NCBI GenBank assembly: GCA_004284765.1
Contig: NQJD01000064.1
Location: 1 to 8,501 of the forward strand
DNA: 8,501 nucleotides
From: Candidatus Electronema aureum
GTDB lineage: Bacteria; Desulfobacterota; Desulfobulbia; Desulfobulbales; Desulfobulbaceae
Direction: 5' to 3'
Part shown: positions 2,417-8,298 of the stretch, piece by piece
How the letters are laid out: every line of letters begins with the position of its first letter
Position numbering within the stretch: position 1 is the first letter of the stretch
Notes under the pieces: generated by a model
The model's input: the letters and a program-made list of their open reading frames with translations, nothing else
Told to the model about the DNA's origin: nothing
Database searches by the model: none
Translations under genes and position numbers: made by a program

Positions 2417-2447
2417 GCGTTAAGAAATATTTATAATGGAGCGTGAG

Positions 2448-3551
2448 ATGCTACAAAGACTTTATGTTCATAACTTCAGATGTCTGGAGAATTTTGAACT
2501 GACCGCAAAGGAATTGCCATCTTTTCTTTTAATTGGAAAAAACGGCGTAGGAAAATCTACTGTTTCTTATGCACTGGAGATGTTTCAATCTGTCGGCAGA
2601 GGAATAAACAGAATTAAGGAACTTGTTAAAGAGAGTGATTTTGCTCGTGGAAGGTCTGATGTTCCTATCAGATTTGAGATGGAAGTGCTGCTTGACAACA
2701 AGCTATACAAATATGAACTTGCTTTAGAATTGCCGGAAAAATTTAAGGAACTTCGAGTTGTCGAGGAGCAACTATCAGTCGCAGGATCCCCGGTTTATTC
2801 CCGGAAAGAAGCTCAAGTAACTCTTCATTCTCAAAATCGTGCCGCGCAGTTTTTAGTTGACTGGCATCTTGTTGCTCTACCGGTCATTCAGGAACAATCG
2901 GAGACTGATCCGCTTCGTATTTTCAAAACTTGGCTGGCCCGTATGATTATTTTGTCGCCAATTCCAAGCCTGATGACTGGTGAGTCCAGCGGCGAAACAC
3001 TGGACCCGAAGCGGGACGGCTCTAACTTTGGCGAGTGGGTTTCCGGGCTGTTCAGTCGTTATCCAGCAGCCTATATGCAGGTTGACAAGTATCTTCGCAA
3101 CGTCATGCCTGATATTCAAGATTTTATGAATGAACCTGTCGGCAGGGACTCGAAAAGTATGATTGTTCGATTTGAAGCCAATAATGCAACTCTGGGTGTT
3201 GACTTCAAGGAATTGTCTGACGGGGAGAAATGCTTTTTTCTTTGCGCTGCGGTCTTGGCTGCCAACAAATCGTATGGTCCGCTATTCTGCTTTTGGGATG
3301 AACCAGATAGCTATCTCGCTCTTTCTGAGGTTAGACATTTTGTAACAGAATTGAGACGTTCATTTCATGGTATGAGCCAAATATTAATGACATCCCATAA
3401 CTCTGAGGCGATACAAAGCTTTTCAAACGAAAACACCTTTGTGCTCGACAGGAAAAGCCATCTTGAACCAACTTTGATTAGACGACTCAGCGATCTGAAT
3501 ATCGAAGGAGATATTATTGAATCCCTTATCATAGGCGACATAAAAATATAA
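2448..3551 (+). CDS. ABC/SMC-head-type (AAA_15/AAA_21-like, OLD/RecF-like) ATPase, about 367 aa; candidate defence-system ATPase
   Basis: The N-terminus LQRLYVHNFRCLENFEL is followed by Walker A GKNGVGKST (2535-2561). The ABC signature LSDGEK is at 3213-3230 and Walker B LFCFWDEPD at 3282-3308. An H-loop-like MTSH motif is present (His codon 3396-3398). GGAG (2439-2442) precedes the ATG at 2448; the ORF-track ATG at 2436 is an alternative start. The gene is AT-rich (22/60 G+C in 2461-2520). Confidence 0.85.
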   Translation: MLQRLYVHNFRCLENFELTAKELPSFLLIGKNGVGKSTVSYALEMFQSVGRGINRIKELVKESDFARGRSDVPIRFEMEVLLDNKLYKYELALELPEKFKELRVVEEQLSVAGSPVYSRKEAQVTLHSQNRAAQFLVDWHLVALPVIQEQSETDPLRIFKTWLARMIILSPIPSLMTGESSGETLDPKRDGSNFGEWVSGLFSRYPAAYMQVDKYLRNVMPDIQDFMNEPVGRDSKSMIVRFEANNATLGVDFKELSDGEKCFFLCAAVLAANKSYGPLFCFWDEPDSYLALSEVRHFVTELRRSFHGMSQILMTSHNSEAIQSFSNENTFVLDRKSHLEPTLIRRLSDLNIEGDIIESLIIGDIKI

Positions 3552-3553
3552 GC

Positions 3554-4042
3554 ATGGATAAACACAACCCACAACTTCTCATTCTGCCTGAAGATAAAGC
3601 TAACTGTCAGATTGCAAATGGATTTTTTCTAAATCTGAATATCAAATCTCGCTCTTTTCGGGTACTGCCGATTGCTGGTGGATGGACAAAAGTCTTGAAA
3701 AAGTTCAAGACTGATCACCTTGACAAGATGAGGAGGTGTCCAGACAGGAAGATGGTGTTTCTGATTGATTTTGATGAAAATAAAGAGCGATTAGATCGTA
3801 TCAAAAAAGAGATACCTCAAGATTTGATTGACAGCGTTTTTGTTCTCGGTGTCTGGTCTGAACCGGAGAAGCTAAAGAAAAAAACAGGGAAAGATTTTGA
3901 AACGATCGGAAAGGCACTTGCGGAAGGATGCCCAATCAGCAGAAACGAATTATGGTCAGATGAGCTGCTTCAGCATAACGAAACTGAATTAGACCGTATG
4001 ATTCCACTTGTCAAATCCTTTCTGTTTGAAAAAACAGAATGA
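3554..4042 (+). CDS. 162-aa hypothetical protein, possible minimal Toprim-like (RloB/DUF4276/DUF4435-style) partner of the upstream ATPase
   Basis: Its ATG lies 2 nt after the ATPase stop (TAAGCATG), which suggests translational coupling. It shares the AT-rich composition (24/60 G+C in 3721-3780). The pattern is: hydrophobic strand plus acidic residues LLILPED (E13, 3590-3592), then AGGWTKV, then hydrophobic strand plus DxD VFLIDFDE (D72/D74, 3767-3775). The coding call is fairly secure. The fold and function are inference only. Confidence 0.65.
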   Translation: MDKHNPQLLILPEDKANCQIANGFFLNLNIKSRSFRVLPIAGGWTKVLKKFKTDHLDKMRRCPDRKMVFLIDFDENKERLDRIKKEIPQDLIDSVFVLGVWSEPEKLKKKTGKDFETIGKALAEGCPISRNELWSDELLQHNETELDRMIPLVKSFLFEKTE

Positions 4043-4177
4043 TGGGTTATACCCAAGGAGACAGTGTTATATAGCAAAAAGATAAGCTGCACTTTTAATA
4101 AAATTGCTCGCAGCTTCGGTCTCATAGCGCGTGAAAAGACGCACGCAGCCCTTCATCTTTCTTCCATCAAAGGCAGC

Positions 4178-5650
4178 ATGGAACAGAGCGAACAACGCAT
4201 GAAATCTTCTGAAATCCGTTATCGGCGGCTTTTTGAAGCGGCAAGAGACGGCATCCTGATCCTTGATGCCGAGACAGGGAAGATTGCAGATGTGAATCCC
4301 TTTTTAGTGGAAATGCTCGGCTATTCCTATGCAGATTTCTTGGGGAAAAATCTTTGGGAGTTGGGAGCGTTCAAAGATGTTGCGGCATCAAAGGCCGCAT
4401 TCTCGGAACTGAAGCAGAAGAAATATGTCCGCTACAACGATCTGCCGCTGAAGACTAAAGACGGTCGCCTGATTGCGGTGGAGTTTGTCAGCAATGTCTA
4501 TCAGGCTGGTCAGGAGGAAGTGATTCAGTGCAACATCCGCGACATCACGGAACGGAAAGAGATTGAAGCAGCCTTGCTGAATGCCAGCGCGGAGCTGGAG
4601 CATCGCGTCGAAGAGCGCACGGCGGAATTGCAGACAGCTCTAGCGGCAATCAATGTGCTGCAGGAGCAGGTTGAGGCTGAGAATCTCTTTTTCCGCAGAG
4701 AGCTGCGGCAGAAGTATCAATTCACCCGGATTATCGGCCAAGACAGCGGCCTCAGAGATGTCCTCCGCATGGCCGAGCAAGTCGCGCCCGGCAACACCAC
4801 GGTGCTTATCCTTGGCGAGACTGGCACCGGCAAAGAATTGATTGCGGCGGCCATTCACGACATGAGTCCGCGCCGGGAACATCCGCTGATCACAGTCAAC
4901 TGCGCCGCGCTGCCCGGCAATCTGATCGAAAGCGAACTGTTCGGGCGCGAGAAAGGTGCCTACACCGGGGCGGACACCAAGCAGGCAGGCCGCTTTGAAA
5001 TCGCTGACGGCTCCACCCTCTGCTTGGATGAAATCGGCGAACTGCCGCTTGAACTCCAGGCAAAACTGCTCCGAGTCATTCAGCATAACGAGTTTGAGCG
5101 GCTGGGATCATCCCGCACTGTCAAAGTGGATGTGCGAATCGTGGCCACCACCAACCGCAACCTTGATGAAGAGGTCAGCCAAGGCAGGTTTCGTCAAGAT
5201 CTCTACTATCGGCTCAACGTCTTCCCGCTCACTGTGCCGCCTCTGCGGCAGCGGAAAGAAGACATTCCGATGATGGTTCATGCCTTTGCCGAGCGGTATT
5301 CCAAAAAGCTCGGCAAAGCGATCACCTCTGTCCGCAAGGAGACGATCAGGGCTTTGCAGGACTATCCTTGGCCCGGCAACATCCGAGAGCTGGAAGGTGT
5401 CATTGAGCGGGCAGTGATTCTCTGCGTCGGCCCAGTGCTGTATCTCACCGACGAGCTGAAGATTCTCGCCCCGCTTGCCTCGCCGTCTGACAAGCAGACC
5501 TTAGAAGAGACAGAACGGAATCACATCATCAAGATCCTCTTTACAACCAGATGGCGGATTGAAGGCAAGGACGGCGCAGCCCTGATTCTTGGCATCAATG
5601 CCAGCACCTTGCGCGCACGAATGCACAAGCTCGGAATACTTCGCCCCTAA
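4178..5650 (+). CDS. Sigma-54-dependent transcriptional activator (bEBP): PAS sensor, coiled-coil linker, AAA+ sigma-54-interaction domain and Fis-type HTH; no receiver domain
   Basis: The PAS S-box runs from RYRRLFEAARDGILILD to IRDITERK. Walker A GETGTGKE is at 4814-4837. A GAFTGA-type loop reads GAYTGA (4955-4972). Walker B is LCLDEIGEL, and the sensor II / Arg finger motif is PWPGNIRELE. The C-terminal HTH reads AALILGINASTLRARMHKLGI. The start is ambiguous: the GTG at 4064 (ORF track) would add 38 residues with no domain. The ATG at 4178 gives MEQSEQRMKSSEIRYRR just before the PAS domain. Confidence 0.9.
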   Translation: MEQSEQRMKSSEIRYRRLFEAARDGILILDAETGKIADVNPFLVEMLGYSYADFLGKNLWELGAFKDVAASKAAFSELKQKKYVRYNDLPLKTKDGRLIAVEFVSNVYQAGQEEVIQCNIRDITERKEIEAALLNASAELEHRVEERTAELQTALAAINVLQEQVEAENLFFRRELRQKYQFTRIIGQDSGLRDVLRMAEQVAPGNTTVLILGETGTGKELIAAAIHDMSPRREHPLITVNCAALPGNLIESELFGREKGAYTGADTKQAGRFEIADGSTLCLDEIGELPLELQAKLLRVIQHNEFERLGSSRTVKVDVRIVATTNRNLDEEVSQGRFRQDLYYRLNVFPLTVPPLRQRKEDIPMMVHAFAERYSKKLGKAITSVRKETIRALQDYPWPGNIRELEGVIERAVILCVGPVLYLTDELKILAPLASPSDKQTLEETERNHIIKILFTTRWRIEGKDGAALILGINASTLRARMHKLGILRP

Positions 5651-5695: not shown

Positions 5696-5731
5696 CCTCA
5701 ACATGCCGAGGTTTTCGGCCAAATGTTGAGG
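5696..5731. promoter_or_regulatory. Compound palindrome: candidate bEBP upstream activating sequence, or a terminator-like hairpin of the bEBP gene
   Basis: CCTCAACAT (5696-5704) is the exact reverse complement of ATGTTGAGG (5723-5731). The inner pair GCCGA (5705-5709) / TCGGC (5715-5719) also matches. The centre lies about 105 bp upstream of the -24 GG of the sigma-54 promoter. It starts 46 nt after the regulator stop and has no trailing T-run. Confidence 0.4.
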
Positions 5732-5816: not shown

Positions 5817-5832
5817 TGGCCCTTAGTTTGCA
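5817..5832 (+). promoter_or_regulatory. Sigma-54 (RpoN) -24/-12 promoter
   Basis: TGGCCC-TTAGT-TTGCA matches the consensus TGGCAC-N5-TTGCW. The invariant GG (5818-5819) and GC (5830-5831) are exactly 12 nt apart. The site lies 167 nt downstream of a sigma-54 activator gene and about 130 nt upstream of the first Gly-X-Y lipoprotein start. Confidence 0.65.
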
Positions 5833-5913
5833 ATAGTGGTTGTATCCTTGCGTTCATTCGGCCCACTGCTGGAGAAAACCTTGGAAGAAGAACCTGTTCG
5901 AGAGAAAAATCTC

Positions 5914-5934
5914 AGCAATGAAATGCATTGCTGA
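5914..5934 (+). promoter_or_regulatory. Conserved 5'-leader hairpin, copy 1
   Basis: CAGCAATG (5914-5921) pairs with CATTGCTG (5927-5934) around a 5-nt loop. The hairpin ends 27 nt upstream of the GTG start. A counterpart sits at the equivalent place in copy 2. Confidence 0.3.
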
Positions 5935-5960
5935 TCGCATTCACCAAGGGATCAACTGCC

Positions 5961-6383
5961 GTGAAAAAGAATACTCTCATCTCGTCGCCTGTCACCAGTG
6001 CTGCAAAGAAAGCAGCCGGACGCGCCGTCCTGTTTGTCGCATCGTTTCTTGTGCTTTCGCTGATTGCCTGCAATGGCCCTGCCGGGCCGGCGGGAGAGAC
6101 CGGTAAAACAGGCAATACTGGTAACACAGGAGACACAGGTTATACAGGAGCGCAAGGAAACCAAGGCAACCAAGGCAACACTGGAAATCACGGCAAAGCC
6201 GGAGCTGATGGTGCGCAAGGCAACCAAGGTAACACCGGGGATACCGGAGACACAGGAAACACTGGCAACACTGGAAATACCGGCAAAGCCGGAGCTGACG
6301 GTGCGCAAGGCAACCAAGGTAACACCGGAGACACCGGCAAAAAAGGCTCAGGCGCTACAATAATTATCGAAAAAAAAGAATAA
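5961..6383 (+). CDS. Small lipoprotein with a collagen-like (Gly-X-Y)31 mature region, 140 aa precursor
   Basis: The GTG at 5961 is preceded by AAGGGA. The signal peptide [36 protein letters not shown] has the lipobox L-I-A-C (Cys codon 6069-6071). It is followed by an uninterrupted [30 protein letters not shown]...GDTGKKGSG run and a 9-residue tail, ATIIIEKKE. The ORF-track start at 5928 is a TTG that adds 11 residues. Confidence 0.8.
6075..6353 (+). repeat. 9-bp-periodic coding repeat (31 Gly-X-Y triplets) with an internal 90-bp duplication
   Basis: GGN-NNN-NNN periodicity is visible throughout. The segments at about 6174-6246 and about 6264-6336 are near-identical, both reading GGCAACACTGGAAAT..CGGCAAAGCCGGAGCTGA.GGTGCGCAAGGCAACCAAGGTAACACCGG. 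Confidence 0.9.
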
Positions 6384-6506
6384 GAAGAATAACAGTCAAG
6401 TTTATGAACTGCGGACGTTTGAGTGGTCAGCAGACATGTTGGAAGGGAAGTGTTTGGCAGTTCGTGGAGGTTCCTCTGAATTCCGGGCTGGTTCAAAAAA
6501 ATATCT

Positions 6507-6526
6507 CAGCAATGGACTCATTGCCG
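6507..6526 (+). promoter_or_regulatory. Conserved 5'-leader hairpin, copy 2
   Basis: CAGCAATG (6507-6514) pairs with CATTGCCG (6519-6526), 7 of 8 pairs, around a 4-nt loop. Its position relative to the GTG start at 6554 matches copy 1. Confidence 0.25.
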
Positions 6527-6553
6527 ATCGCATTCACTAAGGGAGCAACTGCC

Positions 6554-7014
6554 GTGAAAAAGAATACTCTCACCTCGTCGCCTGTCACCAGCACTGCAAA
6601 GAAAGCAGCCGGACACGCCGCCCTGTTTATGGGCTTGTGCCTTATGCTTTCACTGACTGCCTGCACTGGCCCTCGCGCGGCCCTCGTGGAAATACTGGCA
6701 ATACCGGAAATACTGGCAACACGGGGGTTTCTGGAGACACCGGCTACACAGGTGCAACTGGGGCCACTGGTGCGCAAGGAAACCAAGGCAATACAGGAGA
6801 TACCGGAGACACTGGTTATACAGGTGCCACCGGAGCGCAGGGAAACACCGGCAACACCGGGGATACTGGGGCTGATGGTGCGCAAGGAAACCAAGGCAAC
6901 ACTGGAGATACCGGAGACACTGGTTATACAGGTGCCACCGGAGCCACAGGAAGGACTGGAAATACTGGCAACAGAGGCCCAGGTGCTACTGTGATTGTTC
7001 AACCAGAATTATGA
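6554..7014 (+). pseudogene. Paralogous collagen-like lipoprotein gene, frameshifted as sequenced (signal peptide and Gly-X-Y region lie in different frames)
   Basis: The GTG at 6554 gives [36 protein letters not shown] (lipobox L-T-A-C, Cys codon 6662-6664), then T-G-P-R. The (Gly-X-Y)34 run, [10 protein letters not shown]...GNRGPG, and the tail ATVIVQPEL are in the other frame (6679-7014). Removing the GC at 6677-6678 from CGCGCG (6674-6679) gives a continuous ...C-T-GPR-GPR-GNT... register. Confidence 0.6.
6679..6984 (+). repeat. 9-bp-periodic coding repeat (34 Gly-X-Y triplets) with an internal 108-bp duplication
   Basis: The segments 6769-6836 and 6877-6944 are 65/68 identical. Both read GGTGCGCAAGGAAACCAAGGCAA....GGAGATACCGGAGACACTGGTTATACAGGTGCCACCGGAGC. 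Confidence 0.9.
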
Positions 7015-7055
7015 ACCGCAGACGATTCAGCGGCCAGCAGAAAGGAAAGGAGAAC

Positions 7056-7364
7056 ATGATGTCAGAATATGAAAAACACCCTAGTCACTTTGCGATGTTT
7101 TTTTTGATGGGCGGTGCGTTAGGCGCATTAGCAGGTATTTTCCTCGCCCCGAAATCGGGCAAAAGATTGCGGGCTGATCTCAGGAATAAAGGCAGCGAGG
7201 CGGTCGATGACACCAAGGAAATGTACGCTGATGTGAGCACTAAGGCAAAAGAGATCATTGAGGAAGCCGAGCATCAGGCAGAAGCTCTGAAGAAGGAAGC
7301 GGAACGCTATCTCTCAGAGGCCCGCCTGCGGGTGAAAGAAATCTTTGCCCGCAGTGAAGAATAG
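7056..7364 (+). CDS. YtxH-domain protein (general-stress-type small membrane-anchored protein), 102 aa
   Basis: AAAGGAAAGGAG (7041-7052) precedes the ATG at 7056. An N-terminal glycine-zipper helix, FFLMGGALGALAGIFLAPKSGKRLRADL, carries the YtxH hallmark APKSGKxLR. A charged helical tail follows. The ORF-track start at 7011 adds 15 residues that are unlikely. Confidence 0.85.
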   Translation: MMSEYEKHPSHFAMFFLMGGALGALAGIFLAPKSGKRLRADLRNKGSEAVDDTKEMYADVSTKAKEIIEEAEHQAEALKKEAERYLSEARLRVKEIFARSEE

Positions 7365-7402: not shown

Positions 7403-7816
7403 ATGGAAATACTGCTGGTGGTCAGCGTTACGGTCATTGCGGCGGTCATGGTGATGAGGGCTGTTTTTGAAATTCTTGCTCTTGTCCAAGTTCGCCGTAC
7501 TGCTCGAGAGGCCGAGAAATTACTTGCTTCGGTCAGCCATGAAGTCGGTTTGATTTCCAGTGAAGTCAAAAGTCTTGTTCAGTTCATTCAGGAGCAGGCG
7601 GAACGAGTCGAAGACAGTATTGAAACCTTTCATGACATGGCAGCTTGGATGAAAGCGTTTCAGTCAGAGGTTAAACCGGGCATCGAAGAAACCCTCTTGC
7701 AGCTGGCCGCAGTCCTTGGCGGTGTTCGGCGAGGCGTCGAAGCCGTCACCAGCAGCATGCATGGCAAGAAGCCAGATTCTGAAAAATCGCAGCACCGGAG
7801 AAATAGAAATGAATGA
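7403..7816 (+). CDS. DUF948-like membrane-anchored coiled-coil protein (YtxG-type), 137 aa
   Basis: GGAGAGG precedes the ATG at 7403. The N-terminal TM helix ILLVVSVTVIAAVMVMRAVF is followed by helical heptad-like segments (REAEKLLASVSHEVGLISSEVKSLVQFIQEQAERVEDSIE). It is adjacent to a YtxH gene, as in ytxGH-type loci. The family call comes from architecture and context only. Confidence 0.65.
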   Translation: MEILLVVSVTVIAAVMVMRAVFEILALVQVRRTAREAEKLLASVSHEVGLISSEVKSLVQFIQEQAERVEDSIETFHDMAAWMKAFQSEVKPGIEETLLQLAAVLGGVRRGVEAVTSSMHGKKPDSEKSQHRRNRNE

Positions 7817-7994
7817 GCATTCAAGCGTGAAAGATCGCGCAGAAGGACAATTCCATCAAGTAAATGGAAAGATCAAAGAAGTTGTCGGGAATATGTTTAA
7901 TAATCAAGAACTGGAAGCCGAGGGCAGGAAAGAAAACTTGTCAGGCAAAGTTCAGGATAAAGTCGGCCAAGTCGAGAAAGTGCTAGGCATGTAG
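7809..7994 (+). CDS. CsbD-family stress-response protein, 61 aa
   Basis: GGAG (7797-7800) precedes the ATG at 7809. The sequence KDRAEGQFHQVNGKIKEVVGNMFNNQELEAEGRKENLSGKVQDKVGQVEKVLG matches the two-repeat CsbD pattern, and the size is typical. The start overlaps the DUF948 stop (ATGAATGA, 7809-7816). The ORF-track start at 7716 is an antecedent in-frame extension. Confidence 0.85.
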   Translation: MNEHSSVKDRAEGQFHQVNGKIKEVVGNMFNNQELEAEGRKENLSGKVQDKVGQVEKVLGM

Positions 7995-8002
7995 GGATAA
8001 CT

Positions 8003-8037
8003 GAAGAAAAGCAGGCAAGTTAGCCTGAGTTTTCTTC
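8003..8037 (+). terminator. Terminator-like hairpin closing the putative operon
   Basis: GAAGAAAA (8003-8010) pairs with TTTTCTTC (8030-8037). CAGGC (8012-8016) pairs with GCCTG (8023-8027) around a 6-nt loop. The hairpin starts 9 nt after the csbD-like stop. There is no separate 3' U-tract beyond the Us in the descending arm. Confidence 0.45.
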
Positions 8038-8064: not shown

Positions 8065-8235
8065 ATGAAGAGTGAAAAGCCAAGAAGAAAGGGTCAAGGC
8101 GTAGTGGAATTTCGGCAAATACTAGGTGGGATTTATTATACTGCCGGGAAGCGCACTGATCACCAGAAGATGAAGAGAGAAGAAAGAGAAGAAGATGCAG
8201 TCAGCGGTAAGGTTGAAGAAGCACCTGGAGTGTAA
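8065..8235 (+). CDS. Possible small ORF (56 aa), charged; perhaps a degenerate CsbD-like remnant
   Basis: AAAGGAG (8049-8055) lies 9 nt before the ATG at 8065. The translation is MKSEKPRRKGQGVVEFRQILGGIYYTAGKRTDHQKMKREEREEDAVSGKVEEAPGV. The ORF is below the ORF-track size cutoff. I recognise no family motif except a weak ...SGKV... resemblance to the CsbD C-terminus. Confidence 0.3.
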   Translation: MKSEKPRRKGQGVVEFRQILGGIYYTAGKRTDHQKMKREEREEDAVSGKVEEAPGV

Positions 8236-8298
8236 GCAGGATTGAAAGGATAACGCAGAAGAAGCAGGCAACCTAATGTGCAACTCTTTTAAACTTGA

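Follow-up and report, generated by a model that had tools for sequence, protein, structure and literature searches.

Tandem genes for predicted proline-poor, domain-less collagen lipoproteins at the head of a putative sigma-54 stress operon in Candidatus Electronema aureum

Can a collagen triple helix be built from a short chain that is tethered to a membrane at one end, carries no trimerisation domain and contains almost no proline? The question is raised by a tandem pair of genes, copy A and copy B, in Candidatus Electronema aureum, a member of the Desulfobulbaceae. They lie on contig NQJD01000064.1 (assembly GCA_004284765.1), the first 8,501 nucleotides of which, read on the forward strand, we refer to as ‘the window’. 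The mature part of each predicted product is essentially one collagen-like segment (104 aa for copy A, about 116 aa for copy B), and the genes stand at the head of a predicted sigma-54 stress operon. From an analysis that was computational throughout, we consider that the two copies, on balance, probably specify stress-induced envelope lipoproteins that form a proline-poor triple-helical rod, about 27–30 nm long, serving as a hydrated spacer or brush. Should these chains fold in this way, no smaller natural collagen would be known to find its register without a trimerisation domain, and they would do so almost free of proline. The sequence limits accepted for the triple helix would have to be widened, and recombinant collagen materials would gain a minimal scaffold. 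A domain-less, proline-poor collagen conserved across a whole family is a real puzzle for collagen folding and, at some 100 residues, one that can be tested cheaply.

Copy A is intact (Table 1). Its GTG start codon at 5961 follows, at a distance of nine bases, the Shine–Dalgarno-like sequence AAGGGA (5946–5951). The encoded N-terminus has a basic n-region and a hydrophobic core, followed by L-I-A-C. Lysines occupy positions 2 and 3, within the first seven residues in which the lipoprotein rule looks for Lys or Arg, and both copies match the lipobox pattern {DERK}(6)-[LIVMFWSTAG](2)-[LIVMFYSTAGCQ]-[AGS]-C (a PROSITE PS51257-type rule). One residue past the lipobox Cys begins an uninterrupted run of 31 Gly-X-Y triplets, and the protein ends nine residues past the last of these. 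The commonest triplets are GNT (eight), GDT (four), GNQ (four) and GAQ (three), with Asn, Ala, Lys or Asp at X and Thr or Gln at Y. Proline is confined to the first two triplets, and makes up 3% of the X and Y positions. The original prediction had described a lipobox, a pure Gly-X-Y run rich in Asn/Asp at X and Thr/Gln at Y but poor in proline beyond the first triplets, and a short hydrophobic tail; copy A agrees with it exactly. The match to Pfam Collagen (PF01391) that had been proposed as a check was found both for copy A and for the collagen frame of copy B (E=3.4e-17; 62.4 bits against a gathering cut-off of 27.2).

Collagen is the sole Pfam domain, and a sequence search of the PDB returned generic collagen chains only. 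Tandem repeats inside the collagen genes have periods of 9, 18, 45, 90 and 108 nt and contain 0% indels; with 31–35 consecutive glycines at a period of three, the periodicity is therefore not due to chance. In an AlphaFold2 (AF2) model of the monomer the only helix is that of the signal peptide (residues 15–35), and no compact alternative fold, such as a polyproline II bundle, was predicted. RTX (repeats-in-toxin) calcium-binding nonapeptides were rejected on inspection, as the repeat register does not fit, and so were N-glycosylation sequons, Asn-Thr-Gly not being N-x-S/T.

How far this design extends can be judged from the 120 best database matches, taken as clusters at 90% identity. Fifty-nine of them share it, with a lipobox, a collagen run and a conserved tail. 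In these proteins an 18–21-aa lipoprotein signal peptide precedes 11–38 triplets; the run begins 1, 5 or 12–39 residues past the Cys, and the tail has the form G-x-T-[VI][VI][VI][VI]-P-(P)-x. A C-terminal Arg or Lys is present in 64% of the 59, whereas Glu and Leu are the last residues of the two window proteins. The motif C-x-G-P-x-G-P-x-G is invariant in an alignment of 33 members, and named sources of the family are Telluria/Massilia, Rhodocyclaceae/Dechloromonas and Burkholderiaceae. The original prediction had called for homologues of the same minimal build, and had allowed that they might instead reveal a larger C-terminal domain simply lost here. Because 59 of the 120 combine the minimal design with a conserved tail, the architecture is ancestral and conserved, with no larger domain lost. 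The other best matches, roughly one in two of the 120, are ordinary collagen proteins that end in a globular domain and lack a lipobox, and their similarity runs through the repeats only.

Within the family, the X and Y positions are used very differently. Over 1298 triplets, Asn occupies 23.0% of X but 0.1% of Y, Tyr 6.3% and 0%, and Ser 10.5% and 1.5%; conversely, Thr occupies 3.2% of X and 64.2% of Y, and Gln 0.5% and 12.7%. Host–guest data from Persikov et al. reportedly place Asn and Tyr among the worst residues at Y, with Thr and Gln acceptable there. The asymmetry fits these preferences, and is thus what triple-helix packing would select.

One subfamily (P0028, P0068, P0070, P0072, P0076 and others) has Asp at position +2 and a linker of the form C-D-R-P-T-V-V-x-V-P...V-P-G-P-A-G. 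This Pro/Val-rich linker places a second T-V-V-x-V-P, the motif of the tail, on the N-terminal side of the collagen run. The composition suggests that these members may be retained in the inner membrane and, possibly, that their end motifs pair. The size of the family cannot be counted by profile: a search with the family alignment against 1.84 billion representatives gave 101,416 matches, the best 150 of which were all giant collagen-repeat proteins (728–4756 aa), the profile being swamped by Gly-X-Y. A genome scan with a narrower alignment found only Electronema-type genes, and in the literature we found no paper linking collagen-like proteins to cable bacteria or describing a minimal lipoprotein family of this kind.

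The closest proteins and loci belong to Candidatus Electronema, cable bacteria from fresh water that fall within the Desulfobulbaceae. Seven related loci were compared: those of sp. VV (L003), sp. JC (L007), sp. PJ (L008), E. nielsenii F5 (L009), a Desulfobulbaceae metagenome-assembled genome (L010), assembly GCA_052784985.1 (L001) and a Logan contig (L004). Two types of paralogue can be told apart by their tails. Type A ends GSGAT[VI]IIEK(K)E, with 27, 30, 31 or 41 triplets; type B ends G-x-GATVI[VI][QK]P-x-L, with 23 to 39. Both tail types are kept across Electronema species, and the tail-only architecture, without a globular domain, that the original prediction had pointed out is found in copy A and in every intact orthologue of copy B. 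Two undamaged copies are present in L001, L007 and L009. In L008 and L010 there is only one gene, A-like at its N-terminus and B-like at its C-terminus, apparently the product of an unequal crossover. The N-termini of the two copies in L007 are identical, which indicates gene conversion between them. Per genome, the triplet numbers of A and B are 31/35, 27/23, 30/35 and 41/39.

Throughout this variation, every intact orthologue preserves an unbroken Gly at every third residue, whether it has 23 triplets or 41. Counted by codon position (1, 2, 3) in the Gly-X-Y frame, substitutions number 5, 6 and 35 between copy B of the window and that of L009, 9, 4 and 21 between copy A of the window and that of L007, and 5, 4 and 30 between the single genes of L008 and L010. 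From the excess at third positions it follows that the Gly-X-Y frame is under purifying selection. Other frames open over the repeats, namely an ETKAT... frame and ORFs (open reading frames) on the minus strand, were dismissed as by-products of composition, since the third-position substitutions mark Gly-X-Y as the coding frame.

The spacer between the two copies (6384–6500) is a separate curiosity. It is almost invariant across species (in the equivalents from L001, L004, L007 and L009), exceeding even the coding repeats in conservation. It reads gtttatgaactgcggacgtttgagYggtcagcagacatgttggaagggaagtgtttggcagttcgtggaggtt..., and its first part occurs a second time behind copy B (7009–7042). An RNA element, a processing site and a duplication junction are all conceivable.

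Copy B is a different matter. The original prediction held that both paralogues encode a lipobox followed by collagen; this stands for copy A, but in copy B the signal peptide and the collagen run lie in different frames. As sequenced, copy B is a frameshifted gene, and the two-part protein is what its orthologues encode. At the site of the shift the window reads GGCCCTCGCGCGGCCCT where the in-frame orthologue of L004 reads GGCCCTCGCGGCCCT; in an alignment with copy A and four orthologous copies, the extra CG in cgcgcg is unique to the window. Read straight past the lipobox, frame 2 yields no Gly-X-Y. Deleting one CG in silico yields a 152-aa precursor with 35 triplets. Beyond the shift, the collagen frame, tail and stop codon are intact, with no further lesion, and the comparison with L004 gives 28 synonymous and 15 non-synonymous codon changes, with no non-synonymous excess. 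The frameshift is therefore either very recent or an error of the consensus.

That it is a two-nucleotide error of assembly or polishing, and that the organism has two intact genes, we regard as close to an even prospect, if just short of it; the alternatives are a true, very recent inactivating mutation, or on/off switching by slippage in the CG repeat. The undamaged downstream frame favours an error, and related assemblies have single indels too. For example, the one collagen gene of L003 is frameshifted (8255–8295) at a run of four G, where five are expected, in a duplicated 18-nt unit, and past the break its frame still ends GTTVIVQPDL and a stop. In L007 (8067–8086) the activator gene described below has one extra nucleotide, ccgCatgatgg in place of ccgatgatgg in the window (5258–5276), which splits it into two frames. 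On the other hand, the inverted repeat in the leader of copy B has a unique T>C change in an otherwise invariant stem, which speaks for a real change. So does the distribution of the frame breaks, which among the genes common to the seven loci fall only in the activator and collagen genes of this regulon, all others being unbroken. The recurring breaks could thus reflect a pattern of assembly errors or recurrent inactivation. Against slippage, (CG)3 is too short for it to be efficient. Programmed frameshifting was rejected on inspection, there being no slippery heptamer at the site. Scans of metagenome DNA, made with each allele at the site of the shift and with the leader hairpin, gave no matches.

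How might these genes be expressed? Control by sigma-54, as the original prediction had proposed, is well supported by the layout upstream. The gene directly preceding the collagen genes encodes a sigma-54 enhancer-binding activator (Pfam Sigma54_activat, 3.4e-71; PAS_9, 5e-11; HTH_8, 9e-5), and such a gene adjoins the collagen gene or genes in six of the seven related loci, the exception being L001. Between activator and collagen genes lies a nested palindrome, about 105 bp 5' of the -24 element and followed by an A/T-rich tract; it is nearly invariant in all seven loci, L001 included, and would be the site that the activator binds. Enhancer, bend and promoter, in this order, are the classic layout of sigma-54 promoters. 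The -24/-12 element, TGGCCCTTAGTTTGCA, is the only match of its type in the window and is not significant by itself, at least one match occurring in 78 of 200 shuffles; it recurs, however, at the same position in seven of seven loci as TGGYCC-N5-TTGCA. Copy B has no sigma-54 promoter of its own: the conserved TGGCAG-ttcgt-GGAGG upstream of it was rejected because it lacks the GC of the -12 element.

Each collagen gene is preceded, furthermore, by an inverted repeat in its leader. The stem is invariant in 12 of 12 collagen gene copies and the loop varies; in a stem without covariation, an RNA hairpin and a DNA operator are not distinguishable. The repeat scores as a terminator on the minus strand. 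An Rfam search of the whole window returned nothing relevant, and the leader hairpin matches no known RNA family.

The collagen genes keep constant company. The order of the cluster is PAS/sigma-54 activator, palindrome, -24/-12 promoter, collagen gene(s), YtxH, DUF948, CsbD and BON, and the longer loci continue with small basic proteins, a secreted BON-domain protein, DUF3309, a 157-aa protein and DUF5670. Six to seven Electronema-type genomes share a conserved set made up of YtxH, DUF948, CsbD, BON, DUF3309 and DUF5670. Such partners are typical of general and osmotic stress: the Bacillus ytxGHJ and csbD genes belong to the sigma-B regulon, and OsmY is an example from Escherichia coli. Past the terminator-like hairpin that may end the operon, a small basic, Lys/Glu-rich ORF of 56 aa (8065–8235) is present in all the related loci, at 55–62% identity; no family could be assigned to it.

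Table 1. Features of the collagen gene cluster in the window (coordinates are window positions)
Feature	Position	Strand	Remarks
PAS / sigma-54 enhancer-binding activator	4064–5650	+	PAS, AAA+ Sigma54_activat, Fis-type helix-turn-helix (HTH_8)
Candidate enhancer (upstream activating sequence, UAS)	5699–5728	+	nested palindrome CAACAT-GCCGA-ggttt-TCGGC-caa-ATGTTG
Sigma-54-type -24/-12 element	5817–5832	+	TGGCCCTTAGTTTGCA; canonical spacing
Leader inverted repeat, copy A	5912–5934	+	TCAGCAATG-aaatg-CATTGCTGA, 9-bp stem
Copy A (type A), intact	5961–6383	+	GTG start, 140-aa precursor
Copy A signal peptide (predicted)	5961–6068		36 aa
Copy A lipobox Cys (LIAC)	6069–6071		Cys37
Copy A Gly-X-Y run	6075–6353		31 triplets
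Copy A tail	6354–6380		ATIIIEKKE
Leader inverted repeat, copy B	6506–6527	+	unique T>C, giving an A.C mismatch in the stem
Copy B 5' part, frame 2	6554–6678	+	GTG 6554, signal peptide, LTAC (Cys 6662–6664), then TGPR
Copy B frameshift site	6674–6679	+	(CG)3 against (CG)2 or CCCG in in-frame orthologues; 2 extra bases
Copy B 3' part, frame 1	6679–7014	+	34 Gly-X-Y triplets (6679–6984), tail ATVIVQPEL, stop
YtxH-like protein	7056–7364	+	Pfam YtxH 5.6e-18; N-terminal membrane helix; syntenic in all related loci
DUF948 (YtxG-like) protein	7403–7816	+	Pfam DUF948 8.7e-9, just under gathering score; syntenic
CsbD-like stress protein	7809–7994	+	Pfam CsbD 7.1e-16; syntenic
Terminator-like hairpin after CsbD, possible operon end	8012–8027	+	consensus match only

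We envisage the following sequence of events. On some stress or redox signal, the PAS-domain activator would bind the palindrome and fire the -24/-12 promoter, giving a single transcript for collagen A, collagen B, YtxH, DUF948 and CsbD. The precursors would be exported by Sec, lipidated at the lipobox Cys and cleaved, and the Asn or Thr at position +2 would, by the E. coli rule, direct their sorting to the outer membrane. Three chains confined to the membrane could then associate side by side into a homotrimer. Homotrimers are more likely than A/B heterotrimers, since the length of A does not follow that of B and some genomes have a single copy. The GPxGPxG motif next to the Cys (GPA-GPA or GPR-GPR), which supplies the only triplets with Pro, and the beta-branched T-[VI]4 tail may set the register and cap the helix. 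The product would be a rod 1.5 nm thick, with a calculated length, at 0.286 nm per residue, of 26.6 nm for A and 30.0 nm for B; being rich in Thr, Asn and Gln, it would be strongly hydrated. Such rods might act as a spacer or brush on the membrane, as part of an envelope-protective stress response with YtxH, DUF948, CsbD and BON proteins.

Several observations weigh against this scheme. Proline makes up only 3–4% of the X and Y positions. For bacteria as a whole, Pro at X is put at about 19% and Thr at Y at 31.6% (PMC8968730), against 6–9% and 48–69%, respectively, here, so the stability of the helix is uncertain. The AF2 monomer has a pLDDT (predicted local distance difference test) below 50 over the repeats and says nothing informative about a triple helix. 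Rod length varies among close relatives, from 23 to 41 triplets, which makes the role of a precise structural ‘ruler’ unlikely. In copy A the lipobox Cys, counted from the GTG at 5961, is residue 37, two beyond the PROSITE positional window of 15–35, because the n-region is unusually long; in other members of the family it is residue 19–21. A frame break in the regulator or in a collagen gene affects three of seven clusters (copy B of the window, L003 and the activator of L007). Finally, most of the neighbourhoods in which distant members of the family lie have no relation to stress genes, although a few are suggestive: DUF3309 lies immediately downstream in L015, and kdp and DUF5670 lie nearby in L006 and L011.

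The most serious rival to the triple-helical rod is that there is no triple helix at all. The mature proteins might be lipid-anchored, disordered, Gly-rich protectants, akin to hydrophilins or LEA (late embryogenesis abundant) proteins, that retain water in osmotic or desiccation stress. The very low proline content would suit such a role, as would the hydrophilicity of the mature proteins (grand average of hydropathy, GRAVY, -1.0 to -1.3; Gly 31%) and the lack of structure over the repeats in the AF2 model; the operon partners YtxH, DUF948 and CsbD are, moreover, typical general-stress or hydrophilin-type proteins. Disorder, however, requires neither an unbroken Gly over 23–41 triplets nor so extreme an asymmetry between X and Y. 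Every change in length, furthermore, is one of whole triplets, and the conserved end motifs suggest a defined assembly. We consider the disordered protectant unlikely.

A second rival accepts the triple helix and changes its purpose. The stalks might project outward from the outer membrane as a surface nap or adhesin, in the manner of Scl1/2, Lcl or BclA, and mediate attachment or contact with other cells and with sediment, the repeat number being under diversifying selection. A spread of 23–41 triplets between close relatives is typical of surface collagen-like proteins, and the apparent gene conversion and unequal crossover between the tandem copies point the same way. There is also weak NCBIfam similarity to Scl (NF038330 and NF038329, 58–59 bits against cut-offs of 400 and 325) and to Legionella Lcl (NF046116, 49 bits against 500), but the score, at 58 bits against 400 for Scl, comes from the Gly-X-Y repeats only. 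Copy A has neither the LPXTG nor the N-terminal domain of the Scl proteins, and its tail, at nine residues, stands in place of the C-terminal glycosaminoglycan (GAG)-binding domain of Lcl. A ligand-binding domain is absent, and the context is one of stress proteins rather than of adhesion or secretion genes. We know of no surface-export signal in the minimal collagen lipoprotein family. An adhesin is, in our estimate, distinctly improbable. The weakest proposal, that the two genes are what is left, in decay, of a longer collagen-like gene (such as one for an adhesin or a phage tail-fibre, minus its C-terminal domain), could appeal to the half of the best matches with globular domains, but these lack a lipobox and resemble the window proteins through repeats only, while the 59 tailed minimal homologues, the retention of both tail types across Electronema, the purifying selection on the frame and the conserved chromosomal synteny effectively refute it.

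Among known systems, the triple-helical lipoprotein rod that we favour has several partial counterparts. The streptococcal proteins Scl1 and Scl2 (SclA/SclB) likewise have Gly-X-Y repeats without hydroxyproline, polar residues at X and Y, a variable repeat number and an envelope anchor. They differ in that their trimerisation is nucleated by a V domain at the N-terminus and that they are anchored to the wall by an LPXTG motif at the C-terminus; here the predicted lipid is N-terminal, there is no V domain, and proline is much scarcer. BclA of Bacillus anthracis shares the Thr-rich Y position (GxT), and its repeat-number polymorphism sets the length of a filament. Its triplets are GPT, though, and it ends in a C1q-like trimerisation domain, whereas here Asn, Ala or Asp stands at X and a nine-residue tail follows; no C1q/TNF-like domain of the BclA type was found by Pfam in copy A. 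According to a 2022 review of prokaryotic collagen-like proteins, characterised examples have non-collagenous flanks, such as the variable domain of Scl that nucleates trimerisation (PMC8968730). In the Gram-negative envelope, Burkholderia Bucl8 and Bucl3 are predicted lipoproteins with a collagen-like region (PMC4565658, PMC7682875), which in these proteins is an appendage to an OprM-like efflux channel (Bucl8) or a Talin-1-like domain (Bucl3); here it is the whole mature protein. The architecture, described as unusual in the original prediction, is so in having no extra domain, but not in being a lipoprotein collagen, as Bucl8 and Bucl3 were known already (PMC4565658).

Further afield, Braun's lipoprotein, Lpp, offers a likeness in manner of working only: it is a small lipoprotein of the abundant type, the mature part of which is, as proposed here, a single trimeric rod, and it ends in the Lys that serves for linkage to peptidoglycan, much as 64% of the family members end in Arg or Lys. 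That rod is an alpha-helical coiled coil of fixed length, about 8 nm, whereas the one proposed here would be of collagen type, about 20–35 nm long and variable; the repeats are Gly-X-Y triplets, not heptads, and the window tails end in E and L. Animal collagens of types XIII and XVII have an N-terminal membrane tether, and the folding of type XIII is thought to start next to the membrane, while in Hydra minicollagens the collagen segment is short and no large trimerisation domain accompanies it. Unlike the proteins described here, these have coiled-coil or Cys-rich flanks and hydroxyproline, and the homology is limited to the Gly-X-Y repeats.

A bolder generalisation is that collagen lipoproteins without domains and poor in proline form a class of their own, widespread but so far unrecognised, in Betaproteobacteria and cable bacteria. 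These would trimerise solely by way of three co-anchored, lipidated N-termini, an invariant GPxGPxG clamp and a four-residue beta-branched C-terminal clasp, and serve as an envelope strut or tether made of collagen, in function an analogue of Lpp where Lpp is absent; in cable bacteria they would be deployed under stress. As a whole we regard this as quite unlikely. A rod-shaped lipoprotein family common to the two groups would be a new structural element of the Gram-negative envelope.

Two features of the upstream flank are unrelated to collagen. Between trmL and serC lies a 190-aa ORF (677–1249) with an N-terminal hydrophobic segment and no match in Pfam or PADLOC; it is absent from the syntenic locus of sp. 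PJ (L008), whose activator protein is 95.6% identical to that of the window, and in which trmL abuts serC. At 2436–4042, an AAA_21 ATPase (PADLOC AbiLi, 3.7e-23; also HEC-01A and AriA) is accompanied by a 162-aa partner without a family match. This pair is absent, too, from sp. PJ, where the activator directly follows serC, and it looks as if two genes for anti-phage defence had been inserted there, separating serC from the sigma-54 activator.

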